The translations under genes were made by a program, and so were the position numbers. 64,000 nucleotides of DNA, from assembly GCA_964474055.1 (NCBI GenBank), contig CAYYRT010000407.1, forward strand, positions 1,110 to 65,109, read 5' to 3'. The notes under the pieces are model-generated. The model was not told where the DNA came from, did no database searches, and saw nothing but the letters and a program-made list of their open reading frames with translations. The DNA is from an uncultured Acidimicrobiaceae bacterium. GTDB taxonomy: Bacteria; Actinomycetota; Acidimicrobiia; Spongiisociales; ZC4RG35. This document shows, one piece after another, positions 17,310-45,851 of this stretch (the stretch's first letter is position 1; every line of letters begins with the position of its first letter).

Positions 17310-17828
17310 ATGACCACCCGGACGTCGATATCGTTTCGGACGAGACGCGTGTTGAGCAGCACCGTATTGGGCGGTGCCCTCGTATTGGGTAGTAGCCTGT
17401 CGACGGCGGCGCCGGGGCGGGCGCAGGTAGGCCAGCCGGTTGATCTCTTCAATCACACGTTCGACCGTAAGGTCGTCACCGTGCAGGTGCGCTCTGCTCT
17501 TCCCACCGCGGTCGATGGGCTCGAGCGGCTCGTGACCGCGACAGACGTCCGACAAGCACAACAGGCGATGGTGTCGATCAGGAACACGTATCGTTACCTG
17601 CGGGCGGCACAGGAGAGCATCACCCTCATTCATCAGCAAGCCAAGTACCCTGATCCGCTCGCCCCGGTGTACGCGAAGCGGATGTGGGAAGTGCGCGCCC
17701 ATTTGCTCAAGTGCCTTGATACGCGCGACACTCTCACCCCTGACAACCCAGAAAGTGTGGCCATGTGCGCCGACGAGCTCACCGAGGGAATTCGGAAGCT
17801 TCGCATCCTGGTCACACTCTTGCCGTGA
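17310..17828 (+). CDS. Hypothetical small secreted protein (predicted signal peptide).
   Basis: N-terminus MTTRTSISFRTRRVLSSTVLGGALVLGSSLSTAAPGRAQ is signal-peptide-like. It fills the only gap in the operon and its stop overlaps the downstream start (TGATG). Confidence 0.4.
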   Translation: MTTRTSISFRTRRVLSSTVLGGALVLGSSLSTAAPGRAQVGQPVDLFNHTFDRKVVTVQVRSALPTAVDGLERLVTATDVRQAQQAMVSIRNTYRYLRAAQESITLIHQQAKYPDPLAPVYAKRMWEVRAHLLKCLDTRDTLTPDNPESVAMCADELTEGIRKLRILVTLLP

Positions 17829-25267: not shown

Positions 25268-26503
25268 ATGCGTGTCCTGGTGCTCAGCTCCGTGTTTCCG
25301 AACGCTCGTCAACCCACTCTTGGGGTGTTTGTGCGGGAACGCATGAAGCGTGTAGCCAAGGGGTGCGAGGTGGTGGTCGTGGCCCCGCGGCCGTGGTTCC
25401 CGTTCGACCGCGTGGCTCGGCCGCAGTGGTGCGACATCGCGGCCACCGAAGACCAGGACGGCCTCCGTGTCTACCACCCCCGTGTGCTGTCCGTCCCGGG
25501 TACCCTCAAGTTCCTGGATGGTGTCCTCTACGCGGTGTCGCTGGTCAGGTTCCTATCGAAGCTGAGAAGGCGCTTCCCTTTCGACCTGATCGACGCCCAT
25601 TTCGCATACCCGGACGGGCTGGCGGGAGCACTCCTGGGGCGCGCTTTCCGGTGTCCGGTCGTGATCACCCTCAGGGGTAGCATCGTGCGGCTGTCGACCT
25701 ACCCGTTGCACCGCCCGCAGCTGCGCTTCGCGCTCGGAAGGGCGGCGCGGGTCATTGCGGTCAGCCAGTCGCTCAAAAGCGTGGCCGTAGGACTCGGCAT
25801 CGCTCCGGAGAAGGTCCGCGTCATCGCCAACGGCGTCGACACCGTCCATTTCTATCCTCGGGACCGAGAGGAAGCACGGCGTCATCTTGGTCTGCCGACC
25901 GGCCGGACCATTCTCATCTCGGTGGGCGGCCTGAACGAGGGAAAGGGCCATCACCGTGTGGTCGGGCTGCTCCCGAACCTCCTTCGACAACACCCCGACC
26001 TGCTCTTCGTCATCGTCGGGGGAGATCGTCCCTCAGACACCGTGCGCCCTTTACTCAACCGTCTCGTGCAGCGGGAGGGACTGGCCCGGCACGTCCTCGT
26101 GGCCGGCGAGCGGCCCCACGAGGAGATACCTTTCTGGCTGGCCAGCGCGGACCTGTTGTGCCTGGCGACCCGATCAGAGGGTTGGGCGAATGTCCTCCTG
26201 GAGGCCAGCGCCTGCGGCCGGCCGGCGGTCACGACGCGGGTCGGCGGCAACGCTGAGGTGCTTCCGGACGAGCGGTTTGGCCTCCTGGTTGCTCCGGACG
26301 ACGATCGAGCACTCGAGGAGGCTCTTCTGAGCGCCCTCCGGCGGACGTGGGATGCGGCGGCCATGGTCGCTCACGCGCGCGCTCACTCATGGGATCAGGC
26401 TGCAGGCGCCGTCCTGGAGGAGTTCCGCCGGCTCGTGAACGAGCCGGCACCCACGCCTGCCGTCGAGTCGCCACGGCGCCCCGTGGAGAACGTGGGCTGT
26501 TGA
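25268..26503 (+). CDS. Glycosyltransferase family 4.
   Basis: GT4 N-terminal domain (MRVLVLSSVFPN...) and C-terminal ..GWANVLLEASACGRPAVTTRVGG. Confidence 0.75.
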   Translation: MRVLVLSSVFPNARQPTLGVFVRERMKRVAKGCEVVVVAPRPWFPFDRVARPQWCDIAATEDQDGLRVYHPRVLSVPGTLKFLDGVLYAVSLVRFLSKLRRRFPFDLIDAHFAYPDGLAGALLGRAFRCPVVITLRGSIVRLSTYPLHRPQLRFALGRAARVIAVSQSLKSVAVGLGIAPEKVRVIANGVDTVHFYPRDREEARRHLGLPTGRTILISVGGLNEGKGHHRVVGLLPNLLRQHPDLLFVIVGGDRPSDTVRPLLNRLVQREGLARHVLVAGERPHEEIPFWLASADLLCLATRSEGWANVLLEASACGRPAVTTRVGGNAEVLPDERFGLLVAPDDDRALEEALLSALRRTWDAAAMVAHARAHSWDQAAGAVLEEFRRLVNEPAPTPAVESPRRPVENVGC

Positions 26504-27906
26504 TGCACCCTCTCCTCGTCCGTCACATCGTTCTTCCACTTCACGAGCGGCTCAAGCGGACGCCCACATTCGCATGGCTGAAGAGGCTCGAGAGGAGCCA
26601 GTGGCTCGACCGCGACCGGCTCCTCGATCTCCAGTTCGCCCGCCTGCAGGAGCACGTCCGGTTCGCCTACGAGCACACCGTCTACTACCGCCAGTTGCTG
26701 GACGAGCGCGAGCTCCCTCCTCACCGCATCCAGTCGCCGGACGATTTCCGTCGCATTCCGCCGCTGACGCGAGAGCTGATTCGGCGGAACTTCTCGGATC
26801 TCCAGGCGCGCGGCGCGCGGCTCGGGCGCGTGCAGCGGATCTCGACGGGCGGTTCCACCGGTGCCCCCATCACCCTGCTAGTGGATATGAGCGTCGGGAT
26901 CGACATCGCGGTGCGCCACCGGGCCCACCGCTGGTTCCAGGCCGAGCCGGGAGCGCGCGAGATTGTGCTGTGGGGATCGCCGATCGAGCTGGGCCGCCAG
27001 GACCGGGTCCGATCCTTCCGCGACTGGCTCTTGAACTCCCGGCTCCTGTCCGCGTTCGACCTCGGCGAGCCCGCGTTGGGCCGCTACGCGGAGGTGGTCG
27101 AACGACACCGACCCGAGGTCATGTACGGGTACGCGAGCGCGATATACCTCCTGGCCCGATACCTCGAGCGCCAAGGCTGGCATCCCACCTGGAAGCTCAA
27201 GGCAATCTTCACGACGGCCGAACCGCTGCTGGACTTCCAGCGCCACACCATCCAGTCGGTGTTCCGCTGCCCCGTGGCGGTCGAGTACGGCGCCCGGGAC
27301 GCCGGCCACCTGGCGGACGAGTGTCCGATGGGTAGTCTGCACATTCCGGCAGAATGCACACTGCTCGAGACGGAGGGGCGCACCGCCGACGGCCTGGGCG
27401 AGATCCTTGTCACAAACCTCTATTCACCAGCGATGCCTATCATCCGCTACCGCACCGGTGACATGGGCGAGATGGCCGACGGGCCCTGCCGCTGTGGCCG
27501 CTCGCTTCCCGTGCTCAAACGCGTGGAGGGGCGCCGTACCGACTTCCTGATCACGCCGGGGGGACGTGTCATGCATGCGCTCGGGGTCATCTACATCCTG
27601 CGGGAGGTGCAAACCATCAAGGAGTTCCAGGTCGTCCAGGAAGCGCTGGACCGGGTGCGCGTCGACGTCGTTCCCGAGCCAGCCTTCTCGGACCGCGAGC
27701 GAGAAGGCATCGAGCACCGGATCCGGACGCTCCTGGGGGAAGGGGTCGAGGTTCTTGTCCACGTCACCACCGGCATCCCCCACGCTCCCTCGGGGAAGTT
27801 TCGATTCGTGATCTCGCATATCGCCGACGCATACCTCGAGGGGATTCTCGCCGGGGTACCGGCGCCGGCGCAGACCTCGCCCACACCTGGGTCAGTTGGC
27901 AGGTAG
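26503..27906 (+). CDS. CapK / phenylacetate-CoA-ligase-like adenylate-forming enzyme.
   Basis: ..RISTGGSTGAPI.. adenylation core motif, PaaK/CapK-like length and layout. TGATG overlap with the upstream gene. Confidence 0.65.
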   Translation: MHPLLVRHIVLPLHERLKRTPTFAWLKRLERSQWLDRDRLLDLQFARLQEHVRFAYEHTVYYRQLLDERELPPHRIQSPDDFRRIPPLTRELIRRNFSDLQARGARLGRVQRISTGGSTGAPITLLVDMSVGIDIAVRHRAHRWFQAEPGAREIVLWGSPIELGRQDRVRSFRDWLLNSRLLSAFDLGEPALGRYAEVVERHRPEVMYGYASAIYLLARYLERQGWHPTWKLKAIFTTAEPLLDFQRHTIQSVFRCPVAVEYGARDAGHLADECPMGSLHIPAECTLLETEGRTADGLGEILVTNLYSPAMPIIRYRTGDMGEMADGPCRCGRSLPVLKRVEGRRTDFLITPGGRVMHALGVIYILREVQTIKEFQVVQEALDRVRVDVVPEPAFSDREREGIEHRIRTLLGEGVEVLVHVTTGIPHAPSGKFRFVISHIADAYLEGILAGVPAPAQTSPTPGSVGR

Positions 27907-27910
27907 GCGG

Positions 27911-28945
27911 ATGACTTGGCGCCTCTATCCCACGACGGCCTTTGCGGAATATCGCCCTCTCTGGGACAAGACCAACGGGCTGCAGGATGATCATCCCCTG
28001 CTGGATTCAGGGTTTGTCGCTTTGCTTCTCAAGTATTTCGGTTCCGATGCCACTCGGCTTGCGGTGTCAACAGACGCTCCCGGTGCCGCTCTTGCTCTCG
28101 TCCAGTCCTCCGGGCTCGGGACCTGGCAAACCTTCCAGCCTTCTCAGGCCCCGCTCGGGCTCTTGGTGTTCTCGTCTCGCCTCGGTGCCGACCTCCGCAT
28201 TCGTGAGCTTCTCCACCAGTTACCGGGGTACGCCATTGTGCTCTCCGTCCTTCAGCAAGACCCCGACTTCACCTCCTTGCCGGCCGCGGAAGATCAGCCC
28301 CGTGTGGAGCGATTGGACTACATCCAGACGGCGCGGCTGACCCCTTCGGGATCCTTCGACGACTACTGGGGCCGGCGTGGCAAGAATCTCACCCACAACC
28401 TCTCCCGTCAGCGTCGCCGGCTCGCGAAACAGGGAGCGACGCTGGAGCTGGTGAGCGATCGCGACCCCGCCGCCGTGGCGGAGGCGATCGGGGAGTATGG
28501 GCGCCTCGAGAGTCTGAGCTGGAAAGCTGAACACGGCACGGCGGTGAGCCCAGACAATCCCCAGGGGCTGTTCTATCGCGACGTGCTCGAGTACTTCTGC
28601 GCGCGAGGAGAGGGCGTGATCTACCGGCTGCTGCTGGATGGCAAGGCCGTTGCGTGCGATCTTTGCATCGAACGCAAGGGGATGCTGGTCGTGCTCAAAA
28701 CCACCTACGACGAACGGGTTTCCGGCTATTCATTGGGTCTTCTGCTCCACGAAAGCATGTTCCGGGCGGTCTTCGACGAAAAGCGCATCAAGGTCATCGA
28801 ATTTTACGGACGGGTCCGCGACTGGCACACGAAGTGGACCGATGAGATCCGCACGATGTATCATCTCACGCTCTATCGGCACGCATGGGTCCCGCGAGCC
28901 CGTCGTCTCATTCGCGCATGGACAAGCCGCGGAGCTCGCGGATGA
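27911..28945 (+). CDS. CelD/BioF2-like (GNAT-fold) acyltransferase-like protein.
   Basis: About 345 aa with no obvious TM. Layout as in CelD-like proteins that accompany CapK-like enzymes. Alternative TTG start at 27896. Assignment from overall pattern only. Confidence 0.45.
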   Translation: MTWRLYPTTAFAEYRPLWDKTNGLQDDHPLLDSGFVALLLKYFGSDATRLAVSTDAPGAALALVQSSGLGTWQTFQPSQAPLGLLVFSSRLGADLRIRELLHQLPGYAIVLSVLQQDPDFTSLPAAEDQPRVERLDYIQTARLTPSGSFDDYWGRRGKNLTHNLSRQRRRLAKQGATLELVSDRDPAAVAEAIGEYGRLESLSWKAEHGTAVSPDNPQGLFYRDVLEYFCARGEGVIYRLLLDGKAVACDLCIERKGMLVVLKTTYDERVSGYSLGLLLHESMFRAVFDEKRIKVIEFYGRVRDWHTKWTDEIRTMYHLTLYRHAWVPRARRLIRAWTSRGARG

Positions 28946-29973
28946 GTGTCACCATCCGTCGCGCCGTCCTCGAGGCCGACGGCGACCGCATGGTCAAGCT
29001 ATTCGCCGCTCACCTCAACTCTGCCTATGACCAGGCGCGCTTCGACTGGCTCTACCGCGCCAATCCCGACGGGCCCGGTCGGGCCTGGCTCGCGGTCGAC
29101 AGCGAGACGGGAGATCTGGTGGGCACTGCCGCCGCGATACCGCGCCGAGTGCTGATGGGCGGCGAAGATCGACTGGCCTTCGCCTTTAGCGACTTCTGCG
29201 TCGTGCCGACATTCCGCGTGCTCGGGCCGGCCCTCCGATTGCAGCAGGCCTGCCTCGCGCTGGTCGCCGAAGGCGACGCCCTGTTCGGTTACGACTTCCC
29301 GTCGGCCGGGATGACGGCGATCTACCGGCGCCTCGGCATACAACCTTTCGGGCACATCTCCCGGTTCGCCCGACCTCTTCGGAGTGGTCGAAGGATCCGT
29401 GCCCTCGGGCTTCCTTCGCCGGTCGCCGTGCCGCTCACGGGCGTCGCCGACTTTCTCCTGGTGCTCACGGGACCAAGTCGCCGGCGCCGGGATATCGAGG
29501 TGGCATTGCATCGCGGAGCGTGTGGGCCAGAATTCTCACTCCTCGACCGGAATTGCAGTGATCAGTCCACCGTGAGGCTTCGCCGTTCGGCCGAGTATCT
29601 GAACTGGCGTTTCCTCGCGAATCCATTCCAGCACCACGAGATTTTCAGCGCGCGTTCGGGGGGAACATTGCTCGCTTACGCGGTGGTCGCGTCGCAGCCG
29701 GAGACGCCCACCGTAGTTGATCTCTTCGGCCCCTGCGATCGGAATGTGATCCAGACGCTCATCGCGGGTGTCACAGCCCGTCTGCGCGCCCGCGGCGCCA
29801 TCACGCTGAGTATCACGCTCCTGGAAACCCACCCCTGGGCAGGTCTTGTCCGGCGACTCGGCTTTCGTCGGCGCGAGTCCTCGCCCGCGATTCTCTACGC
29901 TCCTGACGCCTCGGCGATGTCCCGGCTGACGGGCTCGCCGTGGCTCCTCACCTGGGGGGACCGAGACAGTTGA
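28942..29973 (+). CDS. GNAT-family N-acyltransferase-like protein.
   Basis: Central ..DLVGTAAAIPRRV..FAFSDFCVVPTFR..ACLALV.. resembles the acyl-CoA N-acyltransferase core. ATGA overlap with the upstream gene. Confidence 0.5.
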   Translation: MSVTIRRAVLEADGDRMVKLFAAHLNSAYDQARFDWLYRANPDGPGRAWLAVDSETGDLVGTAAAIPRRVLMGGEDRLAFAFSDFCVVPTFRVLGPALRLQQACLALVAEGDALFGYDFPSAGMTAIYRRLGIQPFGHISRFARPLRSGRRIRALGLPSPVAVPLTGVADFLLVLTGPSRRRRDIEVALHRGACGPEFSLLDRNCSDQSTVRLRRSAEYLNWRFLANPFQHHEIFSARSGGTLLAYAVVASQPETPTVVDLFGPCDRNVIQTLIAGVTARLRARGAITLSITLLETHPWAGLVRRLGFRRRESSPAILYAPDASAMSRLTGSPWLLTWGDRDS

Positions 29974-29990
29974 CCTTTGACGGGGGCGCT

Positions 29991-30254
29991 ATGGCTGGCA
30001 CTCACACCGCCGATCGAATCAAGGCGTTCATCCTCGATCACTTCCCCTTGGCTCGTGGGCGCTCGTTACGGAACGATGATCGTCTCTTGGAGAACGGTCT
30101 CCTCGACTCGCTGGGCGTTCTGGACCTCGTGGCCTACCTCGAGCGGGAGTTCCAGATGGTCGTCTCTGACGACGAATTGCTACCCGAGCATTTCGAAAGC
30201 ATCGATCGTCTCACCCGATTTGTCGACCGTAAGCGTGGCGGGACCGCACGATGA
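29991..30254 (+). CDS. Acyl carrier protein (phosphopantetheine-binding).
   Basis: 88 aa. ..ENGLLDSLGVLDLVAYLE.. carries the DSL phosphopantetheine attachment motif. Confidence 0.7.
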   Translation: MAGTHTADRIKAFILDHFPLARGRSLRNDDRLLENGLLDSLGVLDLVAYLEREFQMVVSDDELLPEHFESIDRLTRFVDRKRGGTAR

Positions 30255-31312
30255 CTGGCGACACTCCCCGGCGCGTCGCGGTGGTGATTCCCTTCTATCA
30301 ACGCGAACACGGTATCCTTTCGAAGGCGGTGACGTCCGCCCTCGGGCAGCTCGATGTCGAGGAGTTTGAGATCATCGTGGTCGACGATGGCTCGCCGGTC
30401 TTGGCCCAGGATGAACTGGCTCCACTCCTTACGCACAACCGAGATCGCCTGCGTGTACTTCATCGATCGAACGGCGGTCCCGGCGCGGCTCGAAACACCG
30501 GTCTTGATGCGGTCAGCCCGGAGACCACGTACATTGCCTTTCTCGATTCGGACGACACGTGGGCCCCCAGTCATCTGCATCGCGCCGTGGCGGCCCTGGA
30601 CCAGGGCTACGACTTCTACTTCTCGGACTTTTTCCAGCTCGACCAAACGATCAGTGCGTTCCGACGTGCCGGGCGCATCGAGCCGTCGCACCACCCCGCG
30701 CTACGCGGTCTTTCCGCGATGCACGAGTGGAGCGGAGACATGCTCGCCCAGATCCTCACCGGCAATGTCATCGGCACTTCCACCGTCGTGTACCGGCGCG
30801 CCTGCTGCCCGGAGCTTCGATTCCACGAGGACTATTCGCATGCCGGCGAGGACTATCTCTTCTGGCTCGATGTCTCGACCCGGACGACACGGTTTGTCTT
30901 TTCCTCGGACAACGAGTGCACCTATGGCAAGGGGGTCAACATGTACACCGGGTCGGGGTGGGGTAGCGCGGGCTCACTCCGGCGAACTCTGTGCGAGATG
31001 AAGTACCTGAAGGCCGTCAGGCGCCGGTATCCCCTGAGTCCGGCGCTGTCCAGCCACGTCGCGAGGGGTCGCAGACGTCTGCGCAGTTACTTTGTTCGTG
31101 ATGTGCTGCATCGCCTGTTCCGTCGAGAGCCTCTGGACCCTCACGTGCTGCTGGAACAATTGCGCCACGACGTGTGGAGCGGGGTCCTATTCGCACCACT
31201 CGCTTGCCTCATCGCGGTCTCTGCCATCAAGGCGAAGCTCACGGTGGCGCGCACGGGCGGCGCCGCGGCCGCCCTGGTGACCTCCCTCAAGGACACGACA
31301 TGGACTATTTGA
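30251..31312 (+). CDS. Glycosyltransferase family 2.
   Basis: VAVVIPFYQRE..IVVDDGS..AFLDSDDTW (DxD) motifs. Confidence 0.8.
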   Translation: MTGDTPRRVAVVIPFYQREHGILSKAVTSALGQLDVEEFEIIVVDDGSPVLAQDELAPLLTHNRDRLRVLHRSNGGPGAARNTGLDAVSPETTYIAFLDSDDTWAPSHLHRAVAALDQGYDFYFSDFFQLDQTISAFRRAGRIEPSHHPALRGLSAMHEWSGDMLAQILTGNVIGTSTVVYRRACCPELRFHEDYSHAGEDYLFWLDVSTRTTRFVFSSDNECTYGKGVNMYTGSGWGSAGSLRRTLCEMKYLKAVRRRYPLSPALSSHVARGRRRLRSYFVRDVLHRLFRREPLDPHVLLEQLRHDVWSGVLFAPLACLIAVSAIKAKLTVARTGGAAAALVTSLKDTTWTI

Positions 31313-32871
31313 TCCATCACATGCTGCGCACCAGCGCTGGGCGCACGCCGCAGAAGGAAGCGCTGGTCCACAAGGAGCAGCGACTCACGTATCGCGACGC
31401 GTGGGCTCGGGTCAGCGGGTTCGCGGAGGGGCTGACGCGTGCCGGGCTTCAGCGAGGCGATCGGGTTGGCATCTATCTTGAGCCATCCGTCGCCCAGGCG
31501 ATGTCCATCTTCGGCGTCTCCAAAGCTGGGGGCGTCTTCGTTCCCGTCAACAGTCTGCTGTTCCCGGACCAGGTTGCCCACATCGCGCGGAACTGCTCGA
31601 TGCGGTTTCTGGTGGCCCCGGCCTCTCGCCTCTCGGCGCTAGCGGCCATCCATTCAGAGGTGCCGTCTCTGGAATCTGTCGTGGTAGTGGCGGATGGCGG
31701 CCCGGTTCACAGCCCTTGGCCGGCCCACGATTTCGAGGCCTTGTGCCGGCTCGAGGCCAGTGAGACCGAGCGAGAGGCGGGGATCGAGAAGGACTTGGCC
31801 GCCATCCTGTACACATCGGGCTCCACCGGGAAGCCCAAGGGCGTGATGCTGAGTCACGCACAGGTCATGGCCGGCAGCTCCATCGTCTCGAGCTACCTGG
31901 AGATCACCGCTGCCGACCGCATCCTCGCCATCCTCCCCTTCACCTTCGATGCCGGCCTGAACCAGATCATGACCGCCTTCCAGCAGGGGGCAACGATTGT
32001 CCTGATGACCTTTGTCTTCGCCCGGGAGATCGTTCAAGCTCTTCTACGCGAGCGAATCACCGGCCTCGCCGGCGTGCCGACGCTCTGGAGCCTGCTGTCC
32101 CACGGAAGCGCGACCCTCGACAAGCAACCGCTGCCTCATCTCCGCTACATCACAAATACCGGCGGCGCGATGCCGCAGCCGATACTCGCCACATTGCGGG
32201 CAGCACTGCCCGGTACTCGGGTCTTTCTCATGTACGGGTTGACCGAGGCTTTCCGCTCCACCTACCTTCCGCCCGAGGAGCTGGATCGGAGGCCGACCTC
32301 AATTGGGAGAGCCATCCCGAATACGGAGATCCTCGTGATCAACGAGGACGGTCAGCTCAGCAAGCCCGGCCAGGTCGGCGAGCTCGTCCACCGGGGCCCC
32401 ACGGTCTCGATGGGTTACTGGGGTGAGCCTGAGCTGACCGCGCAGGTCTTGAGACCGCACCCGTTGCGCGCGCCGCAGCTCGGCGAAGCGGAGAAGGTCT
32501 GCTACTCGGGCGACTATGTGACCATGGACGAGGAGGGGTATCTCTTCTTCGTTGGACGGCGAGATACGATGATCAAGTGCTCCGGGTTCCGGATCAGCCC
32601 GACCGAGGTCGAGGAGGTGCTGTTTCAGAGTGGGCTGGTCAAGGGCGCCGCGGTCATCGGCGTGCCCGATCCGAGCCTTGGCCAGTTCATCAAAGCCTTC
32701 GTTGTCGGAAAGGACGGAGGCTCGCTCAATACCGAGGAGCTGCTCCAGTTCTGTTCAGAACGCAGCCCGCGTCACATGGTTCCCAAAGTCATCGAGATAG
32801 TCGACGATCTCCCGAAGACTTCGAGCGGCAAAGTAGACTACCCCGCCCTGCGTCGGCGGGAGGGCCTCTGA
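31300..32871 (+). CDS. AMP-dependent synthetase/ligase (acyl-CoA / acyl-carrier-protein ligase, exosortase-associated type).
   Basis: ILYTSGSTGKPKGVMLSH (A3 motif), YGLTE, GDY..DEEGYLFFVGRRDTMIKCSGFRISPTEVE, ..SSGKVD. Confidence 0.8.
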   Translation: MDYLIHHMLRTSAGRTPQKEALVHKEQRLTYRDAWARVSGFAEGLTRAGLQRGDRVGIYLEPSVAQAMSIFGVSKAGGVFVPVNSLLFPDQVAHIARNCSMRFLVAPASRLSALAAIHSEVPSLESVVVVADGGPVHSPWPAHDFEALCRLEASETEREAGIEKDLAAILYTSGSTGKPKGVMLSHAQVMAGSSIVSSYLEITAADRILAILPFTFDAGLNQIMTAFQQGATIVLMTFVFAREIVQALLRERITGLAGVPTLWSLLSHGSATLDKQPLPHLRYITNTGGAMPQPILATLRAALPGTRVFLMYGLTEAFRSTYLPPEELDRRPTSIGRAIPNTEILVINEDGQLSKPGQVGELVHRGPTVSMGYWGEPELTAQVLRPHPLRAPQLGEAEKVCYSGDYVTMDEEGYLFFVGRRDTMIKCSGFRISPTEVEEVLFQSGLVKGAAVIGVPDPSLGQFIKAFVVGKDGGSLNTEELLQFCSERSPRHMVPKVIEIVDDLPKTSSGKVDYPALRRREGL

Positions 32872-34178
32872 TGGTGGACCGGGTCTCCACTCTGATCGCT
32901 CGGCACTTCATGGAGTCCGGGGGCCAGCTGGCGATCGGCGGCCTTCCCATCGGGCCTATCGCATCGGAGTTCGGCACCCCGTTCTTCGTCTACAGCGCGG
33001 ACGTGCTGGATCGCACGTGGGCCCGCCTGCGACAGACGTATCCGGCCGAGTTCTCGATCAGCTACTCGGTGAAGGCGAACCCCAATCGGGCGATCGTCCG
33101 GTACTTCCTTGGCCAGGGGTGTGGTCTAGAGGTCGCGTCGGCAGGCGAGCTGACTCTGGCCCTCGCGGCGGGCTGTCCTCCTCAGCGTATCATGTTTGCC
33201 GGGCCGGGTAAGACGGAGACGGAGCTACGCCTCGCGTTGAATCGGCGCATCGGCGAGATCCACATTGAATCCCTCACTGAGGCCCAACGCATTGGCACCA
33301 TCGCCGCGAGTGTCGGCGAGCCGGCCCGGATCGCTCTCCGTGTCAATCCGAGTGCCGACGCCCAGGGTGGGGCAATGCAGATGGGAGGCAAGCCTGCCCC
33401 CTTCGGCGTGGACGAGGAGGTGCTCGAGGAAACCCTGGACCAGCTCCTCCGCAATCCGAATCTTTCGGTTCGGGGAATCCACCTGTTCAGCGGGACGCAG
33501 ATTCTCGACTACACGGTTCTCGTTCGCCAGTACGAAAAGGGGCTGGCTTTGGCACGCCGTGCTTCCAAGCACCTGCCGGGTCCGCTTCGGACGCTCGATT
33601 TCGGCGGAGGTCTGGGGGTTCCGTATTTCACGGGAGAGTCCGAGCTCGACATGGACTCGCTGGCCGCCCGCCTGCGAGAGCTGGTGGACGAGGTTCGATC
33701 CGACAGGCTGTTGGCCGGTACCCAGCTCGTGATCGAACCCGGGCGATATCTGGTCGCGGAAGCGGGTATCTATGTCGCCCGGATCAACGACATCAAGGTA
33801 TCTCGAGGCAAGACGTTCCTGATCATCGACGGAGGGATGAACCATCATCTCGCCGCTTCAGGAAACCTCGGCCAGGTCATCAAGCGCAATTTCCCGGTGG
33901 CCATTCTGAACAAGATAAGGCGTGAAAGCTCTGGACGGGTCGACGTGGTCGGGCCCCTGTGCACGCCGCTGGATACGCTGGCCCGCGACGTTGAGCTACC
34001 GGGGGCCGAGATTGGCGATTTGCTCGGGATCTTCTGTTCGGGAGCCTATGGGCTCACGGCCAGCCCGGTCCACTTTCTGAGCCATCCGCTGCCTGCCGAA
34101 GTCTTGGTCGAGGCGGGCGTTCCACGGCTGATAAGGGGCCGGCGAGAGGTCCGAGAGGCCCTTGACGATCTCGACTGA
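32871..34178 (+). CDS. PLP-dependent decarboxylase, Orn/DAP/Arg decarboxylase fold (exosortase-associated type).
   Basis: ..TPFFVYS..ISYSVKANPN.. (PLP-Lys region), ..LDFGGGLGVPY.., C-terminal ..CGSGAYG. TGATG overlap with the upstream gene. Confidence 0.8.
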   Translation: MVDRVSTLIARHFMESGGQLAIGGLPIGPIASEFGTPFFVYSADVLDRTWARLRQTYPAEFSISYSVKANPNRAIVRYFLGQGCGLEVASAGELTLALAAGCPPQRIMFAGPGKTETELRLALNRRIGEIHIESLTEAQRIGTIAASVGEPARIALRVNPSADAQGGAMQMGGKPAPFGVDEEVLEETLDQLLRNPNLSVRGIHLFSGTQILDYTVLVRQYEKGLALARRASKHLPGPLRTLDFGGGLGVPYFTGESELDMDSLAARLRELVDEVRSDRLLAGTQLVIEPGRYLVAEAGIYVARINDIKVSRGKTFLIIDGGMNHHLAASGNLGQVIKRNFPVAILNKIRRESSGRVDVVGPLCTPLDTLARDVELPGAEIGDLLGIFCSGAYGLTASPVHFLSHPLPAEVLVEAGVPRLIRGRREVREALDDLD

Positions 34179-34245
34179 GGCTCTTGCGCGCGCCGCCCGG
34201 GGCCCCACCTTCCGTGTCCGGCGTGAGCCGAGGTTGACGGCTCGG

Positions 34246-35370
34246 ATGCTCACTCCATCGATCAAGAGGCGACCACTGCCCGTGCCGGTCGAAGGTAGTC
34301 CAACCTTCTATCTTTTCTGGGCCCGCAGCGGGATCTACCAGAGCCTTCGCGTGCTCGGGTTGGCTGCAGGGGACACCGTGCTGGCTCCCGCGTACCATTG
34401 CGCCTCTCTCGTCGATCCGATCCTTCAGTCCGGAGCTTCGGTCCGCTTCTTTCAGATCCGCCGGGACTGCTCCGTGGACCTCGACGACATCCGCGCCAGG
34501 ATCGACCGCCGCACTCGCGCGATCATCGCCGTCCACTATTTCGGCTTTCCGCAACCACTGCGGGAGCTCCGGACGCTATGTGATGAGCGCGGCTTGTTTC
34601 TCATAGAGGACTGCGCGCACGTGCTGAGTGGGCATTCCGAGGGTCACGCCCTCGGGAGTGTTGGTGACGTCAGCGTGTTCAGCTGGAGGAAGTTCCTGCC
34701 TCTGTACGACGGGGGCGTGCTGGCGGTCAACAACCCTGCCCTGGCCCCCTCGCTCCGTCTGACCGATCCTTCCAGACTGCTCCGGCTGCGGATATGGAAG
34801 AATCTGCTGGACCGGCTGGTGGATGACTCCTCATTCGGAGAATCAGAGGCGTTTCGCGGCATCCTTCGGGCCGTATCGAAGCTCGGTCGGCGGATCGCTT
34901 CTCGGGGCCAGCAATCCGCGTCACTCGCCGTCAACAACTACAGCCTGGATTTGGAGCCGGAGGCGCTGAGCCTCGGCATGTCCGGCCCGTCACGCCGCAT
35001 GTTGCGTCAGGCGGATTTCGCCGAGATCATTGAAGCTCGGCGGCGGAACTACCGGATGCTCCAGGTGCGGCTGACGGGGGTGCCCACCGTGGCGCCTTTG
35101 TTCCCTGCTCTTCACGAGGGCGTCTGCCCATGGGTGTTTCCTCTCGTGGCGTCGGGCCGCCGCGGCTTTCATCTGGAGCTTCGGGCCAGAGGTATTCCGG
35201 CCGTGACCTGGGGAGAGGTGATCCATCGCGATCTTCCCCTGCACGAGTTCCCGGCCGCCCGGTTCCTCTACGAGCATGCCGTTTTCGTGCCGGTCCACCA
35301 AAGCCTTACCGAGTCCGACCTGGAGACTACCGTCGAGGCCATCCGAGCGGTCGCGACCGACCGCGCATGA
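34246..35370 (+). CDS. DegT/DnrJ/EryC1/StrS-like PLP-dependent aminotransferase (sugar aminotransferase-like).
   Basis: ..GDTVLAPAYHCASLVDPI..AIIAVHYFGFP..LFLIEDCAHVLSG..VFSWRKFLPLYDGG pattern. Alternative TTG start at 34162. Confidence 0.5.
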   Translation: MLTPSIKRRPLPVPVEGSPTFYLFWARSGIYQSLRVLGLAAGDTVLAPAYHCASLVDPILQSGASVRFFQIRRDCSVDLDDIRARIDRRTRAIIAVHYFGFPQPLRELRTLCDERGLFLIEDCAHVLSGHSEGHALGSVGDVSVFSWRKFLPLYDGGVLAVNNPALAPSLRLTDPSRLLRLRIWKNLLDRLVDDSSFGESEAFRGILRAVSKLGRRIASRGQQSASLAVNNYSLDLEPEALSLGMSGPSRRMLRQADFAEIIEARRRNYRMLQVRLTGVPTVAPLFPALHEGVCPWVFPLVASGRRGFHLELRARGIPAVTWGEVIHRDLPLHEFPAARFLYEHAVFVPVHQSLTESDLETTVEAIRAVATDRA

Positions 35371-36647
35371 GATCGCTGCTCATGGTCGCCTTCCACTACC
35401 CCCCCTGCGTGGGGAGCAGCGGCGTCTTGCGGACACTCAAGTTCTCACGGTATCTCCCGGACGTCGGCTGGCGCCCGCTGGTGCTGACCGCGCACCCTCG
35501 TGCCTATGAGCGAACGGGATTCGATCAGCTAGGCGAGATCCCTCCAGGCGTTGAGGTTGCTCGCGCGCCGGTGGTGGATTCGTTTCGACATCTGGCCTTT
35601 CGTGGGCGGGCCCTCCGGATCACCGCCCTTCCTGATCGATGGGTCACCTGGTGGGTCGGCGCGGTGGCCACGGGACTGTGGCTCATACGCCGGCGGCGGC
35701 CAGCCGCGATCTGGTCGACGTATCCTATTGCGACGGCGCATCTGATCGGGCTCGCCCTTCATCGACTCACCGGTCTTCCTTGGGTCGCGGACTTCCGGGA
35801 CTCCATGACAGAGCCCGGCTACCCCCGTGACCCCTGGACCCGCCGTGCCTATCTCGCCATCGAGCGGCAGACGGTCAGACGGGCGTCTGCCCTCGTCTTC
35901 ACCGCCCGCTCCACGCGAGCCATGTACCTCGAGCGCTATCCAGGCCTCTCGCCCGACCGCTGCTTCGTTGTGCCCAATGGATACGACGAAGCCGATTTCG
36001 TCGCCCTGTCCGCGCCAACGGGGCGGTGCCCATCGGAAGGTGCGTTGCGCCTGCTCCATGCCGGCTTGATCTATCCGGAAGAGCGCGATCCGCGTCCGTT
36101 CTTTCGCGCTCTGGCCCGGCTGAAGCGCGCCGGCGTCGTCGCCCCCGACACCGTGTCCATCGAGCTTCGCGCGTCAGGGTCTGAGCGCGAATATGCGCGC
36201 CTCCTCGGCGAGCTGAACATCCTGGAGCTAGTCCGCCTCCTCCCGGCGCTTTCGTACCGGGACGTTCTCCAGAACGGCCTGGCCGCCGACGCTCTACTTC
36301 TCCTGCAGGGTCCTACCTGCAATCATCAGATTCCGGCGAAGCTCTACGAATACCTGCGGCTGGGCAAGCCAATCCTCGCCCTGACCGACGCCCGGGGCGA
36401 CACGGCGGCGGTTCTCGGTGAGACTGGAGGCGCGACCACCATCGATCTGCTCGACGAGGATGCGCTGTACCGTGGCCTGCCGTCTTTCCTGGACTCCGTC
36501 CGCAACGGCACCCACCCGGTGCCGGATGCGACAATCTCCGCCCAGTACGCGCGTCACAACCAGGCCGGCGCGCTCGCCCGCCTGTTGACTACGCTCGTGG
36601 AGCGCTCCGATCCGGCGCCCAGAGTGCACACGGGAGTTCGTCTATGA
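35367..36647 (+). CDS. Glycosyltransferase (GT4-like N-terminal domain).
   Basis: MRSLLMVAFHYPPCVGSSG.. typical GT4 N-terminal start. ATGA overlap with the upstream gene. Confidence 0.6.
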   Translation: MRSLLMVAFHYPPCVGSSGVLRTLKFSRYLPDVGWRPLVLTAHPRAYERTGFDQLGEIPPGVEVARAPVVDSFRHLAFRGRALRITALPDRWVTWWVGAVATGLWLIRRRRPAAIWSTYPIATAHLIGLALHRLTGLPWVADFRDSMTEPGYPRDPWTRRAYLAIERQTVRRASALVFTARSTRAMYLERYPGLSPDRCFVVPNGYDEADFVALSAPTGRCPSEGALRLLHAGLIYPEERDPRPFFRALARLKRAGVVAPDTVSIELRASGSEREYARLLGELNILELVRLLPALSYRDVLQNGLAADALLLLQGPTCNHQIPAKLYEYLRLGKPILALTDARGDTAAVLGETGGATTIDLLDEDALYRGLPSFLDSVRNGTHPVPDATISAQYARHNQAGALARLLTTLVERSDPAPRVHTGVRL

Positions 36648-36994
36648 GATATCGATACCGGCTTTCTCTCATCGGTGCGGTCCTCTGGAGCGTGTCCCTG
36701 ATACCAAGCGGCTACGTCGACGACAGGCCTCGAAGCGCGCAGGCCCAGGGCGCCCCCGGGCGGGAGCCGAGTCCCGGCTCGTCTCAGGATGCCGGTGTCT
36801 CCACCCCGCTCAACCCGACCGCTGGCGCCCACATGGACAGCTATGACTACGATAGGCGGAACCGCGTCATAGTCAGCACGAGCTACGGGGAGAGCCAGTT
36901 CCGGATGTGGGTCTGGAGGCCTGATGACAGTGTCTGGAGGGAACTGCCCGTCGACACCCGCCCGACCGAGCTGTGGGCCTGGGGCTATCGGTGA
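36644..36994 (+). CDS. Hypothetical small secreted protein.
   Basis: Signal-peptide-like MRYRYRLSLIGAVLWSVSLIPSG. ATGA overlap with the upstream gene. Confidence 0.4.
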   Translation: MRYRYRLSLIGAVLWSVSLIPSGYVDDRPRSAQAQGAPGREPSPGSSQDAGVSTPLNPTAGAHMDSYDYDRRNRVIVSTSYGESQFRMWVWRPDDSVWRELPVDTRPTELWAWGYR

Positions 36995-37008
36995 AAGCCC
37001 GCGAAGCC

Positions 37009-39993
37009 ATGAACCGCTTGACCTTCGTTGCGGCCCTGGTGTCCTTCTGCGTGCCCATCTTCGTTCCCGGGCCGTCCGCGACGGAGCCCGGCGGGTCCGC
37101 GGGGGAGGTCTCGATCGTCTATTCCCGTTGCCTCCGGATGGAACGCGCGGCTCCAGTCACTCACACCGTGGTCGTGAACGGTAGGCCGGTCAAGGTAGAC
37201 AAATCGCTGGGCCACTCGGATGTGCTCGATGTCCTGCCCGATATCAGTAACTTCTTCGGGGGGTTCACCGCACCCTGTGACCTCATCCTCCGCAATGGGT
37301 CCGGGGCAGAGCGGGTCCTGTACGATTGTGCCTCACGGTCGACGGACCAGGGTGCGTGCGCAGCCCTTGACGCTGCCGTGTCGTTCGACGCGAAGACCAT
37401 TGCCTTCGCAGTCTTTCGAGGTCCGATCCAGCGGCGTACCCTCGATCTCCCTCCCAAGTTCTTTCATCCCGCCGCGGCCGACGGCAGATCTCTGCGGATT
37501 GCCCTCCCCAACGCCTACCTCGAGAGTCGTGAAGCCCAGCTCTTCCTCGTGGATGTCGCCACCGGCAGAGTGACCGGTCTCCCTCACCGCGCCGGCGTCT
37601 TCGACTCCGGTCCGGCGTGGCTCTCGAATGGTCGGCTGGCATTCACCTCCACGCGGAGCGGCCAGTTCTCCACTTTGGTCTCCGACCTTCAGCGCCCCGC
37701 CTCACAGATCTTCACGAGCGATCCGGATGGGCGCAACGTCGAGAAGGCCAGCTATCATGCGCTTGCCGGGGAGCAGCATCCGTTTCAGCTGAAAGACGGG
37801 CGTGTCGCCTTGAGTAGCTGGCAGCTCTTTGGAATGCTGCCGTATCGGAACGACAACGGCTCCGCCGGTAGCTTCGGCACGCTCGACAACTTCTTCCACG
37901 TCTACTCCCAGCATCCGGACGGGGCGAATCCGTTTCCCCTCTTTGGCCAGCACACCACGAATCTGGGAACCTACCCGAGCCCATACCCCGCCCACTTTGC
38001 CGCCCATTTCGCCACGCAGGGCAGCGACGGCCGGTTCTGGGTGGCCGATTACTATCGCGGCAACAATTCCGGTCTCGGACAGGTCGTCGGCTTCCCCCTG
38101 CCGCCGATCGGCCAGGAAGGCATCGCTCCCAATCGCGCGTCTCATCTTCATGACATCTATCGACCCGAAGGGTTTACCATGCTCACGCGGTGGGCGAGCG
38201 GTTTCGACGCCATGGCCGGGCCTATGCCCCCGCCGTCGGTCCGGCTTCCCACGTATCGCGATCCGCTCGCCCTCGTCGGCAAGATCAGCCATCCGGCCGC
38301 GTTGCCGAAGAACGCGCTACTCATCACCTGGGCCGCGGGCGGTTGCAGTACCGTGACCGGCGGGTACCTGGAGATGGAGATGCTGACCCGCTTGGGCCGA
38401 GACAACCCCGGATGCGACGCCGGCATCTACCGGACGTCGCGCATTCCGTCGCGGCATCCATCCGATCTTGTCCAGATCGTGAATCGCCGCGAGTATCACG
38501 AGATCATGGCGCGGGCCGTGGTTCCGTACTCCGTCATCTACGGCATCGAGAAGCCCGCTGCCATTCCTCGGGCGGAGCTGGCCGCGGCGGGTGATCCGGA
38601 CCTCGTGCCCGGTACCCCGTTCGGTGTTCTCGGCGCCTCATCGATCATCCTCCGCGAGACGCGGCCGGTAGGCGGAATCCCGTTTTCGGGGACGCCCTTC
38701 GCCTTCAGTCTCCAGGGAACGGACACCGTCGACTACAAGGACGAGGAGCTGTGCGGTATCCGGATTCTCGCCGTGCAGCCGAACCAGCGCGAGGAGTACA
38801 AGCGGTACAAGACGACCGTCGGCGAGCGGGTCGTGATCCTGGGCGAGTTCCCGGTACACAAGAGGGACCGCGCCGGGAACTCTCCTCGCGACCCGACCGG
38901 CGCACCCGATACCTCTTTCAAGGTGCGCTTCCCCGCCAATACCCCATACCTGATGCAGGGGATCGATTGCCTGGGCCGCACCTTGAATACCGACCAGACG
39001 TGGCAGCACCTCAGGCCGGGCGAGCTGAAGACCTGCAATGGCTGTCATGTTCATGGCAAGGAGGGACTGCCCTTCAACAAGACCGCCGCCGCTGATCCCG
39101 GGTATCGAGCGGTTCGCCTGGGCGAGGGCAGCGTCCCATTGCTGGCAGGCGGCTCGCGGGCATCGGTTCAGGTGGTGAGCAGGCCCGGGTACGGCCTACA
39201 GTTCGAATTCGAGCGCGACGTGTTTCCCATTTTCCAGCGCCGTTGCGCGGGCTGTCATTCGGGCACCGCGCCGGCCGCCGGCGTGGTGCTGGACCTTCCC
39301 GGGACCGGACCTGGGTCCACGTACGATCGCCTTGTCCGGGATCGCGGGCAGCGATTCGTGCCGGACGGCCGCCGCTACCCCCATCCTATCCGCAAGCCCC
39401 AGCTGACGAAATACGTCCGCGCCCTCAACGCTCGCGGCAGTCTGCTCTACTGGAAGGCCATCAACCAGCGAACCGACGGCCGGACCGACACAACGTACAC
39501 GCGCGCGGCCGGTCCAGGATGGGAAGACGTGGACTTCGGGCCCTCCCATCCGACGAGCATCACCCCGGAGGAGCTGGCCACCCTCTCCAGATGGCTCGAC
39601 ACGGGTGCGGCCGCCCAGGCCGGTTTCCTTGCCGACACCACGCCTCCTACTCTGCACCTGGCCGCGGGTGTTCACGGTCAGGCGGTGACCACTCTTTACG
39701 TCGGAACCGTGGATGTTTTTAGCGGCATTGATCAGGCGTCCCTCGAGGTCTGCGTGGTGGCCGGCGATGGCCGTTGTGGTCCGAACCTGGCGCCCAGGGC
39801 CGACCCCGCCGGCGTTGTGAGCATCAGCTTCCGAGAGCCGATTTCCAGCCCGGATGTCGAGGTTCGCGGACGCGTGCGCGACCTGGCCGGTAACGAGACG
39901 CAAGTCCAACACACCTTAGGATGGCTAGTCGAGAACACGGCCCCAGGCCGCCAGACGCCCACGGCGGGGGCTTCCGGTGCTCCCCGTCGATAG
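37009..39993 (+). CDS. Large (~995 aa) secreted beta-propeller protein with two CxxCH motifs and a PSCyt1-like C-terminus (putative c-type cytochrome domain protein).
   Basis: Signal peptide MNRLTFVAALVSFCVPIFVPG, PD40/TolB-like repeats, CNGCH and CAGCH motifs, C-terminal ..ITPEELATLSRWLDTGAA. Confidence 0.6.
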   Translation: MNRLTFVAALVSFCVPIFVPGPSATEPGGSAGEVSIVYSRCLRMERAAPVTHTVVVNGRPVKVDKSLGHSDVLDVLPDISNFFGGFTAPCDLILRNGSGAERVLYDCASRSTDQGACAALDAAVSFDAKTIAFAVFRGPIQRRTLDLPPKFFHPAAADGRSLRIALPNAYLESREAQLFLVDVATGRVTGLPHRAGVFDSGPAWLSNGRLAFTSTRSGQFSTLVSDLQRPASQIFTSDPDGRNVEKASYHALAGEQHPFQLKDGRVALSSWQLFGMLPYRNDNGSAGSFGTLDNFFHVYSQHPDGANPFPLFGQHTTNLGTYPSPYPAHFAAHFATQGSDGRFWVADYYRGNNSGLGQVVGFPLPPIGQEGIAPNRASHLHDIYRPEGFTMLTRWASGFDAMAGPMPPPSVRLPTYRDPLALVGKISHPAALPKNALLITWAAGGCSTVTGGYLEMEMLTRLGRDNPGCDAGIYRTSRIPSRHPSDLVQIVNRREYHEIMARAVVPYSVIYGIEKPAAIPRAELAAAGDPDLVPGTPFGVLGASSIILRETRPVGGIPFSGTPFAFSLQGTDTVDYKDEELCGIRILAVQPNQREEYKRYKTTVGERVVILGEFPVHKRDRAGNSPRDPTGAPDTSFKVRFPANTPYLMQGIDCLGRTLNTDQTWQHLRPGELKTCNGCHVHGKEGLPFNKTAAADPGYRAVRLGEGSVPLLAGGSRASVQVVSRPGYGLQFEFERDVFPIFQRRCAGCHSGTAPAAGVVLDLPGTGPGSTYDRLVRDRGQRFVPDGRRYPHPIRKPQLTKYVRALNARGSLLYWKAINQRTDGRTDTTYTRAAGPGWEDVDFGPSHPTSITPEELATLSRWLDTGAAAQAGFLADTTPPTLHLAAGVHGQAVTTLYVGTVDVFSGIDQASLEVCVVAGDGRCGPNLAPRADPAGVVSISFREPISSPDVEVRGRVRDLAGNETQVQHTLGWLVENTAPGRQTPTAGASGAPRR

Positions 39994-40060: not shown

Positions 40061-41281
40061 TTACCGCTTTCCTCCAGGCGGGTCGCTCCTTGTAAAGCGG
40101 TACGCCCACGTTCGCCTCCCGGAGGCCGCGTCGGTGAGGAAGATATAGAGATTGTTGATGGGGTCGTAGTCCAGTGCGTGAAACGCGAGGGTGCCGATCT
40201 TGGCATCCTGCGTCGACGACGCTTGCATGCGTTGTGAGGTCCAGTGTTTCGTCAAGGGATCATAGGCGTAAAACGTTCCGTCGAGGACTCCACCGCCGAT
40301 GACCATGTTGGCGGCGTCGTAGGCCCATCCTGATTCCTGTGAGTTGGGAATGTCTCCCGTCATCCCCGTCACCTCCGACACCCGTGGTCCCTTCGATGCA
40401 ACTTCGAAGACCCGGGTCGGCGATCCGCGGGCGACCAGGTACATCCTCCGGTTCGGAGGAAAATAGACCAGGTTATTCGCGTATCCGACGGTGGCGGGTA
40501 CATCTGCCAACGTGTCCACCTTCTGAGTCGCCGGATCGTACCGCCATAGACGTCCAGGACTAGCATTGACGCCGAGCCCGATGATCAGGATCAACTTAGA
40601 CTCGGGATCGTACTCCGCGGCCGCTGCGTAGTACCACGTGCTATCCGCAGGGGCGCGACTATATGTCCATCGTGGTGTCGCCGATAGGAGGTCGTAGTGA
40701 GCGATCTTCGCTCGTCCAGGAATCCCACCACTCGTCAGGATGATGAAGTGCTTCTCATTTCCCACCTCGGCTACCGCCAGCATGTCATAGGTATGGCGGA
40801 CGACCGGGTGCCCGGTACTGATCCACGCGCCTCTCTCCGTGTCATTGTTGGCAGCGGTCATTGCCGCCGCGGGAGTCGAGCGATACAGACTCCCCCATTT
40901 CAGCGTATTTAGGTCGAAGGCAGCGATATCCGTCCGGATCGCCGGCCCGTGCCCGCCACCGAACATGAGCATCCGATGATGGTGGGAGTCGTACCGGAAG
41001 CCACTGTAGTCGGTGATGAACTCGCACCCGGTGGGACGGTCAGCTGGCTCACTGCAGGTATAGCGTCCCAGATCCAGAGCCGTGCCGGGAGGAATATTCT
41101 GCAGGGTTGGGTTTGGACGGGGCATGACGCTTCCCCCCGATCGGTCCCTCTCCGTCTTTGCCTCCCGGTACTGCACCGACCGAACCGTCTGCGGCTCGGC
41201 AAGCGCAGCCGCCAGCGCGCACTCCCCCAACACCAGCGTCAGCACCATCACAACCACCCTACTCCCCCAGCTCCAGTTCAC
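40061..41281 (-). CDS. Secreted hypothetical protein, probable beta-propeller (Kelch/galactose-oxidase-like).
   Basis: GTG start with an AAGGAGG RBS, signal peptide, repeated Gly/Trp/Tyr-rich blade-like segments. Confidence 0.5.
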   Translation of the reverse strand: MNWSWGSRVVVMVLTLVLGECALAAALAEPQTVRSVQYREAKTERDRSGGSVMPRPNPTLQNIPPGTALDLGRYTCSEPADRPTGCEFITDYSGFRYDSHHHRMLMFGGGHGPAIRTDIAAFDLNTLKWGSLYRSTPAAAMTAANNDTERGAWISTGHPVVRHTYDMLAVAEVGNEKHFIILTSGGIPGRAKIAHYDLLSATPRWTYSRAPADSTWYYAAAAEYDPESKLILIIGLGVNASPGRLWRYDPATQKVDTLADVPATVGYANNLVYFPPNRRMYLVARGSPTRVFEVASKGPRVSEVTGMTGDIPNSQESGWAYDAANMVIGGGVLDGTFYAYDPLTKHWTSQRMQASSTQDAKIGTLAFHALDYDPINNLYIFLTDAASGRRTWAYRFTRSDPPGGKR

Positions 41282-44394: not shown

Positions 44395-44456
44395 TAATCT
44401 AATCACGCAACTCCTATGGCCCACCTTTCATACCCAGAGTAACGGAAGACGAAGCG

Positions 44457-45847
<1,391 letters not shown>

Positions 45848-45851
<4 letters not shown>

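Follow-up and report, generated by a model that had tools for sequence, protein, structure and literature searches.

A putative carrier-tethered amino-acid decarboxylation module in an XrtA-type exopolysaccharide locus

Why do an adenylating ligase, a free-standing carrier protein and a pyridoxal phosphate (PLP) decarboxylase lie together among the glycosyltransferases of an exopolysaccharide (EPS) locus? The question is raised by a 64-kb stretch of contig CAYYRT010000407.1 from an uncultured Acidimicrobiaceae bacterium, hereafter the window. Loci of the exosortase A/PEP-CTERM kind are a frequent feature of soil, sediment and floc-forming bacteria, yet little of their polysaccharide chemistry is known. 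An earlier note on this DNA had remarked that a ligase, a decarboxylase and an acyl carrier protein (ACP) recur together in exosortase loci with no assigned function. That remark is correct: ligase and decarboxylase correspond to families TIGR03098 and TIGR03099, whose NCBIfam names give neither substrate nor mechanism, and the ACP completes the trio. We propose, with moderate confidence, that aspartate or glutamate is loaded onto the ACP, decarboxylated while tethered to it and then transferred by a tandem-GNAT acyltransferase to a sugar of the EPS, each step being drawn from homology and gene order.

A conserved module within the gene block

Nine plus-strand genes had been described in one block between positions 26503 and 36647, and the open reading frame (ORF) listing, the translations and the family scans bear this out, coordinates included. 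We number them G1 to G9 in order. Most of them overlap or nearly abut, with successive intergenic distances of −1, +4, −4, +17, −4, −13, −1, +67 and −4 bp. Because of these gap lengths, translational coupling, which had been claimed for the whole block, is plausible at all junctions (−13 to +17 bp) but the one between G7 and G8 (+67 bp). The family scans also upheld the labels given to the genes, with two corrections: the ACP has 87 rather than 88 residues, and the “CelD-like” protein is a member of Acetyltransf_6. Apart from the GT2 glycosyltransferase G5, all enzymes of the block are predicted to be soluble.

The view that the nine genes form a single cassette did not survive comparison with other genomes. 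We assembled 98 related loci: 9 from reference genomes, found with a single protein and at most 57% identical, 80 from an alignment-based scan of metagenomes, and 9 from exact-protein look-ups. Tallies made by tblastn with the window proteins cover the first 94 or 97 of these loci, 27 of which have full flanks. In 62 of 65 loci the ligase and decarboxylase genes are neighbors, and in 43 of 47 the ACP gene lies upstream, frequencies from which we conclude that the arrangement is not due to chance. A tandem GNAT of the G3 type stands 5′ of the ACP gene in 30 of 39 loci, and a homolog of the GT4-like G9 directly follows the decarboxylase gene in 35 of 50.

The core of the block is thus a five-gene module: the tandem-GNAT acyltransferase G3 (28942..29973, 343 aa), the ACP G4 (29991..30254, 87 aa), the ligase G6 (31300..32871), the decarboxylase G7 (32871..34178, 435 aa), whose gene overlaps that of G6 by 1 bp, and, usually, the GT-B glycosyltransferase G9 (35367..36647, 426 aa), the customary downstream partner of the decarboxylase. 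The commonest order is G3–ACP–G3′–ligase–decarboxylase–glycosyltransferase; the slot that G5 fills in the window is elsewhere mostly occupied by a G3 paralog or an Acetyltransf_6 gene, and at least two acyltransferase-like genes are present in 24 of the 36 well-flanked loci. The remaining genes behave differently. Among the 27 loci with full flanks, the CapK-like G1 has a counterpart in 1, G5 in 2, G2 in 8 and G8 in 9. G2 and G8 occur together in seven loci, G8 without G2 in four and G2 without G8 in none, and a G2 homolog (55% identical) directly follows a DegT gene in an O-antigen-like locus where the trio is missing. G8 and G2 are therefore a separate pair, also found without the trio, and G1 and G5 are lineage-specific extras. 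Co-occurrence of the trio with GNAT and CapK neighbors, which had been put forward as a check, was found for G3 and not for the CapK-like gene. Similarly, the suggestion that GNAT and CelD-like enzymes both carry out the transfer fits G3, which co-occurs with the trio, but not G2, which pairs with G8.

The module was seen in Nitrospira, Bacteroidia, cyanobacterial, Gemmatimonadota and Acidobacteriota metagenome-assembled genomes (MAGs) and in many metagenome contigs, most of them from JGI/IMG. In the related loci its neighbors are always EPS genes, namely those for AsnB-like amidotransferases, stp glycosyltransferases, an EpsB_2 priming transferase, a deacetylase and WecB. One relative, L010, which is 88–91% identical to the window, has the order G1–G3–ACP–ligase–decarboxylase–G9 and lacks G2, G5 and G8; another, L011, has the same gene content as the window. 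In L010 the decarboxylase (L010:9874-11176) was matched as two pieces in different frames and is called as a 392-aa product, which reflects either a frameshift or an assembly error.

Decarboxylation and activation of the substrate

The decarboxylase G7 had been labeled an Orn/DAP-type PLP decarboxylase. It is a PLP decarboxylase, and it scores 306.5 bits against the lysA model, above the cut-off of 297.9, but its closest relatives lie elsewhere. Its best family is TIGR03099 (“PLP decarboxylase, exosortase A system-associated”, 457.8 bits), and in a search against solved structures the top relative was the L-glutamyl-[BtrI carrier protein] decarboxylase BtrK (281 bits, E 2e-82), compared with 221 bits for the best true diaminopimelate (DAP) decarboxylase. 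In the alignment, G7 and BtrK have in common the segments CTP(L/E)D, GGM(N/H)HH and SGAYGL..SPVHFL.HP, at which sites DAP decarboxylases carry CETGD and GMNDLIRPSIY. The MNDLxRPxxY segment contributes the Arg and Tyr that bind DAP at its distal end. G7 also lacks the CES(G/S)D motif, which is conserved in DAP decarboxylases (bioRxiv 10.1101/2020.10.01.322594). The BtrK-like motifs, the PLP lysine (K68 in SVKANPN) and the cysteine are essentially invariant in about 95 homologs. On the relative scores and the active-site motifs, we rejected the reading of G7 as an ordinary LysA.

G7 resembles BtrK in its alanine-racemase fold and Schiff-base lysine, is closer to it than to DAP, ornithine or arginine decarboxylases, and has carrier and ligase genes beside its own. 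Being BtrK-like, it should act on the amino acid once this is on the carrier, and we propose that G7 α-decarboxylates an ACP-tethered amino acid. The earlier idea that a decarboxylated amine is activated is accordingly unlikely, since decarboxylation should follow loading. Two distant homologs (38–41% identity), one in a Woesearchaeota MAG (L008) and one in an Acetatifactor MAG (L009), have no detectable G6-like ligase or G4-like ACP nearby; they could represent other BtrK-like systems with a different type of ligase.

A decarboxylase working on a free substrate would lead to quite another product. G7 would convert meso-DAP, ornithine, lysine or arginine to lysine or a diamine, an AsnB- or CapK-like enzyme would link the product as an amide to uronic acids of the EPS, and the ligase and ACP would take part in an acylation unrelated to it, such as one with a fatty acid. 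Such a scheme can draw on the lysA score, on the frequent annotation of G7 homologs as diaminopimelate decarboxylases, on the five AsnB-like amidotransferases of the window and its sugar dehydrogenase, which would make uronic acids, and on the matches of the ligase to generic fatty-acid-CoA ligase models. We nevertheless consider it unlikely. No solved DAP decarboxylase is as close to G7 as BtrK, and the segments that replace CES(G/S)D and MNDLxRPxxY are invariant among the homologs of G7; the ligase, as described next, combines a VinN-like pocket with the amino-binding Asp found in amino-acid adenylation domains; and the tight ACP–ligase–decarboxylase synteny would be left unexplained.

The ligase G6 is a stand-alone adenylating enzyme of the nonribosomal peptide synthetase (NRPS) type. 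Against TIGR03098 (“acyl-CoA ligase, exosortase A system-associated”) it scores 633.9 bits, above the cut-off of 592.35, over profile positions 1–515 of 517. It has the Asp of the FDxS motif, which in NRPS adenylation domains binds the substrate amino group. For a 143-residue fragment spanning the pocket, the best solved match is VinN (65 bits, compared with 38 for the next), with the pocket motifs aligned without gaps. VinN activates the side-chain carboxyl of 3-methylaspartate, with D230 binding the amino group and S299 and R331 the α-carboxylate (PMC11253843; PMC7756342). At the positions of VinN D230, F231, S299, K330 and R331, G6 has D, A, T, F and R, so that the residues binding the amino group and α-carboxylate are kept, S299 as Thr, and F231 and K330 are replaced by Ala and Phe. 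Apart from one Ala-to-Val change, these positions are invariant in 65 sequences that are 48–89% identical. The β13–β14 loop, compared with that of VinN alone, aligns without a gap (TEAFRS in G6, TECKRI in VinN), suggesting an equally short length. The conserved pocket argues for a single conserved carboxylate-bearing substrate, and we propose that G6 activates the side-chain carboxyl of Asp or Glu and loads it onto G4.

G4 is a free-standing acyl or aminoacyl carrier protein, with a putative attachment serine in the sequence DSLG. It passes the Pfam PP-binding model (PF00550; 23 bits, cut-off 20.8), and among NCBIfam models those of the AmcB, OlsHI-type and AsbD carrier proteins come nearest to it. 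The D-S-x-G motif (D39, S40, G42) is invariant in all 54 of 54 sequences.

A ligase next to a small carrier also recalls the D-alanylation of teichoic acids, the parallel on which the earlier note had relied, and for the ligase-plus-carrier step the parallel holds. As in DltABCD, an adenylating ligase would load a small carrier and an aminoacyl group would end on a surface glycopolymer. Taken further, the Dlt logic would have the ligase load an ordinary amino acid such as D-Ala, which would be esterified to the polymer, while the decarboxylase acted separately on a free substrate. Ligase, small carrier and acyltransferases are all at hand, and the ACP has a faint match to the DltC model (E 2.6e-4). 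However, this match reaches 21 bits, far under the cut-off of 68, the 60 best solved relatives of G6 do not include DltA, and no equivalent of DltB (MBOAT) or DltD was found in the window, where the enzymes of the block, G5 excepted, are predicted to be soluble. The invariant pocket Arg suits a carboxylate-bearing substrate, and the decarboxylase is BtrK-like, with a gene that directly adjoins the ligase gene in 62 of 65 loci. We regard an ordinary Dlt-like system as improbable. The pathway that we prefer differs from DltABCD in two further respects: transfer would be cytoplasmic, and a decarboxylation on the carrier would be added.

Proposed pathway, transfer and acceptor

In the on-carrier pathway, G6 would take a dicarboxylic amino acid, most probably L-Asp or L-Glu, adenylate its side-chain carboxyl and pass it as a thioester to the phosphopantetheine of holo-G4. 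Decarboxylation at the α-position by a PLP enzyme needs free α-amino and α-carboxyl groups, so the carrier tether must use the second carboxyl. G7 would then remove the free α-carboxyl of the tethered amino acid, as BtrK, VinO and FlvO do, to give β-alanyl-S-ACP or 4-aminobutyryl-S-ACP. From there G3 would transfer the ω-aminoacyl group to a sugar amine or, less likely, a hydroxyl, the acceptor being a nucleotide sugar or a lipid-linked repeat unit on the cytoplasmic side; transfer should be cytoplasmic because the enzymes have no membrane segments. Acceptor amines could be supplied by the XrtA-type deacetylase, which recurs beside the module (e.g., in L096), or by the aminotransferase G8, and G9 would add or extend the sugar concerned. 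The net effect would be an EPS with a short aminoacyl side group bearing a free or further-capped primary amine. The broad claim with which the analysis began, that the EPS operon contains a carrier-protein-dependent acyl or aminoacyl decoration system, is supported.

The candidate transferase G3 is a tandem-GNAT protein with a 30.6-bit match to Acetyltransf_9. Its AlphaFold2 model (pLDDT 93.4) was matched by Foldseek to acetyltransferases like Eis, whose type N-acetylates aminoglycosides (4my0, 3n7z, 2hv2, 2ozg; TM-scores 0.6–0.7), and to N-myristoyltransferases, at E values of about 1e-14. G3 has no third, SCP2-like domain as in Eis and is about 45 aa shorter. Its N-terminal GNAT domain keeps the R/Q-x-x-G-x-G/A motif that binds pantetheine pyrophosphate, here R92-x-x-G95-x-A97, with R92 invariant and conservation of at least 90% at G95 and A97. 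Homologs of G3 with 34–39% identity recur within the same module. We propose G3 as the enzyme by which a sugar amine receives the acyl group carried on the ACP.

Precedents for the combination of enzymes come from antibiotic and related pathways. The same ligase/ACP/decarboxylase logic has been established for BtrJ/I/K, FlvN/L/O and CtaD/E/F (PMC11350588), has been described for VinN/VinL/VinO (PMC7756342) and has been proposed for BolO/C/N. Butirosin biosynthesis in Bacillus circulans (BtrI/BtrJ/BtrK/BtrH) resembles the proposed pathway in its 87-aa free-standing carrier, in a PLP decarboxylase of the alanine-racemase fold that acts on a tethered amino acid, in the tethering of Glu through its side-chain carboxyl and in the final N-transfer of the acyl group to an amino sugar. 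It differs in its activating enzyme: BtrJ, an ATP-grasp enzyme, is different in kind from G6, which is of the ANL/NRPS type. Equivalents of BtrH, BtrG and BtrO/V are lacking here, the acceptor would be a polysaccharide precursor instead of an aminoglycoside, and the candidate transferase is a tandem GNAT. The vicenistatin (VinN/VinL/VinO), fluvirucin (FlvN/FlvL/FlvO) and proposed bolagladin (BolO/BolC/BolN) trios share with the module an ANL-type enzyme, a free-standing ACP and a PLP decarboxylase, and the pocket of G6 is most similar to that of VinN. These trios feed polyketide synthase (PKS) or NRPS lines, whereas here there is no downstream PKS or NRPS and the context is an XrtA-type EPS locus. 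Cytoplasmic, carrier-dependent decoration of surface glycoconjugates is found in Gram-negative bacteria in AlmEFG (glycine on Vibrio cholerae lipid A) and RfbK-O (N-acylation of perosamine with tetronate in O1). As generally described, both differ from the G3/G4/G6/G7 module in having no on-carrier decarboxylase and in using other acyltransferase families.

Since every characterized trio of a ligase, an ACP and a BtrK-like decarboxylase belongs to secondary metabolism, the module might instead make a diffusible compound that is co-regulated with the EPS: an N-acyl amino acid, or a lipopeptide-like or siderophore-like molecule, comparable to the work of BolO/C/N in bolagladin biosynthesis. N-acyl amino acid synthases have been connected with PEP-CTERM loci, going by the title of Craig et al. 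2011 that PMC8776678 cites. However, PKS, NRPS, condensation and thioesterase genes are absent nearby, and in the window the module is interleaved and apparently translationally coupled with glycosyltransferase genes. Its flanks are EPS genes in about 90 other loci as well, and a glycosyltransferase gene follows the decarboxylase gene in 35 of 50. A diffusible product therefore appears quite doubtful to us.

Several points weigh against the on-carrier pathway itself. Acetyl-CoA could simply be the donor that G3 uses; only synteny connects G3 with the ACP. Asp, Glu and other dicarboxylic amino acids are indistinguishable by the G6 sequence, in which VinN F231 and K330 are replaced by Ala and Phe. 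G7 falls just under the trusted cut-off of TIGR03099 (457.8 against 478.45 bits). Seven of the 36 well-flanked loci have no G3-, G3′- or Acetyltransf_6-type gene near the trio, five of them consisting of ACP, ligase and decarboxylase alone, so the seven must rely on a different transferase. We noticed no phosphopantetheinyl transferase gene in the window, and in the literature searched no XrtA locus has been tied to an EPS bearing such a substituent.

In that literature, whose coverage was incomplete so that an earlier mention is possible, we found no paper linking the exosortase-associated families to pathways of the BtrK/VinN type; Haft et al. 2006 does not mention the ligase and decarboxylase genes. 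What appears to be new, then, is a specific proposal for two families of unknown function and for a large GNAT family, the logic itself being already known from butirosin and macrolactam starter-unit pathways in secondary metabolism. The link to BtrK and VinN turns a family association into a prediction, namely an amide-linked β-alanyl or 4-aminobutyryl group on the EPS. If the prediction is right, carrier-tethered amino-acid decarboxylation reaches from antibiotic biosynthesis to the tailoring of surface polysaccharides, and a cationic amine on an acidic EPS would change its charge, metal binding and flocculation and could anchor sorted proteins. The G3 family comprises about 1,900 clusters at 50% identity (E ≤ 1e-30), none of them annotated, so characterizing one tandem GNAT of this type would annotate many genes.

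Anchoring suggests a further idea, to which we give little credence at present. The β-alanyl or 4-aminobutyryl amine on the EPS repeat might be the long-sought nucleophile for PEP-CTERM proteins that are cleaved and transferred by exosortase A, much as the pentaglycine bridge built by Fem transferases serves sortase. If true, this would account for the phylogenetic association of the ligase and decarboxylase families with exosortase A systems, and for the recurrence in the same loci of FemAB-like and FemX/MprF-like transferases and of a polysaccharide deacetylase.

Accessory genes and the surrounding locus

The accessory pair consists of G2 (27911..28945, 344 aa) and G8 (34246..35370, 374 aa), both on the plus strand like the rest of the block. 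G2 belongs to Acetyltransf_6 (PF13480, CelD/BcsL family; 79 bits), with a tandem-GNAT architecture and a FemX/MprF-like fold. A sequence search against solved structures gave no match for G2, and its relatives came from a fold search with the AlphaFold2 model (pLDDT 92.3), in which the top Foldseek matches were the aminoacyl-tRNA-dependent transferases Sba18/Sbb17, MprF and FemX (E 1e-10 to 1e-9, TM-scores 0.5–0.6). NCBIfam gives the related BspF the name of a crotonyl transferase, and it presumably uses an acyl-CoA donor. G8 is a sugar aminotransferase of the DegT/DnrJ/EryC1 type that matches PF01041 with 106 bits over its N-terminal half only; its best solved relative is TlmJ, with which the catalytic Lys aligns. 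G2 is likely the N-(amino)acyltransferase partner of G8, and together the two probably make a separate N-(amino)acylated amino sugar.

Outside the conserved module stand also G1 (26503..27906, 467 aa), an adenylate-forming enzyme of the PaaK/CapK/F390-like group, and G5 (30251..31312, 353 aa), a GT2 glycosyltransferase. G1 has weak NCBIfam matches (PaaK, F390, DVU_1553), its best solved relatives are PaaK and AjiA1, and its homolog in L010 carries the Pfam domain CapK_C. G5, inserted between the ACP and ligase genes, scores 90 bits against Glycos_transf_2 and has a C-terminal hydrophobic segment. Within the module, G9 matches Glyco_trans_4_4 and Glyco_transf_4 over its N-terminal GT4 domain only.

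Family scans identify the surroundings as an XrtA/PEP-CTERM-type EPS locus, with associated families both upstream and downstream of the block (TIGR03013, 03006, 03019, 03087, 03088, 04063, 03108, 03097, 03007 and 03015 in the window). The locus includes an EpsB_2 priming transferase, a chain-length/tyrosine-kinase protein, a UDP-ManNAc-dehydrogenase-like enzyme, WecB, an XrtA polysaccharide deacetylase, a FemAB-family protein, the stp1/stp2/stp3 glycosyltransferases, three AsnB-like amidotransferases and the Wzy-like TIGR03097 protein. Neither the family scans nor counts of hydrophobic segments revealed an exosortase gene in the 64-kb window, whose only multi-pass membrane ORFs are two priming transferases, two Wzy-like proteins and one GT2.

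A second EPS cluster with XrtA-type markers lies downstream (44457-63311). It encodes a sigma-54 response regulator akin to the PEP-CTERM-box regulator, a TIGR03007 chain-length protein, a TIGR03015 ATPase, a second EpsB_2 priming transferase, a GT2, a Wzy_C protein, a heparinase II/III-like protein and two further AsnB-like amidotransferases, which bring the AsnB-like genes of the whole window to five. Base composition varies along the window. In a middle block that includes the cassette (about 15600-43900), third-position GC is 0.75–0.83 and overall GC 62–66%, compared with 0.88–0.97 in the flanking EPS genes and 70–73% in the flanks (10200-14600 and 44400-64000). Horizontal transfer may have brought this middle block into an older XrtA-type locus.

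Near its upstream end, a glmS-like gene (15605-17287) matches the GlmS model to position 551 of 607 only and ends about 50 residues early; it may be a truncated or decaying paralog. A small, apparently secreted ORF follows it (17259-17828).

Downstream of the cassette, G10 (36644-36994, 116 aa) looks like an in-frame remnant of a Kelch-like gene. In L011, a locus 87–92% identical, a 398-aa Kelch-like gene is intact (L011:8531-9727), and G10 retains only about the first 58 and about the last 60 residues of that protein. A minus-strand Kelch-like gene at 40061-41281 is not a relocated copy of the parent of G10, since their identity is 23%, and is a paralog. Two other genes after the cassette are kept in both L010 and L011: G11 (36973-39993), which encodes a 1006-aa secreted protein whose middle domain is hydrazine-synthase-alpha-like (PF18582), and a minus-strand gene (41363-42592) for a Pel9A/NosD-like β-helix protein. 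Both proteins may process polysaccharide extracellularly.

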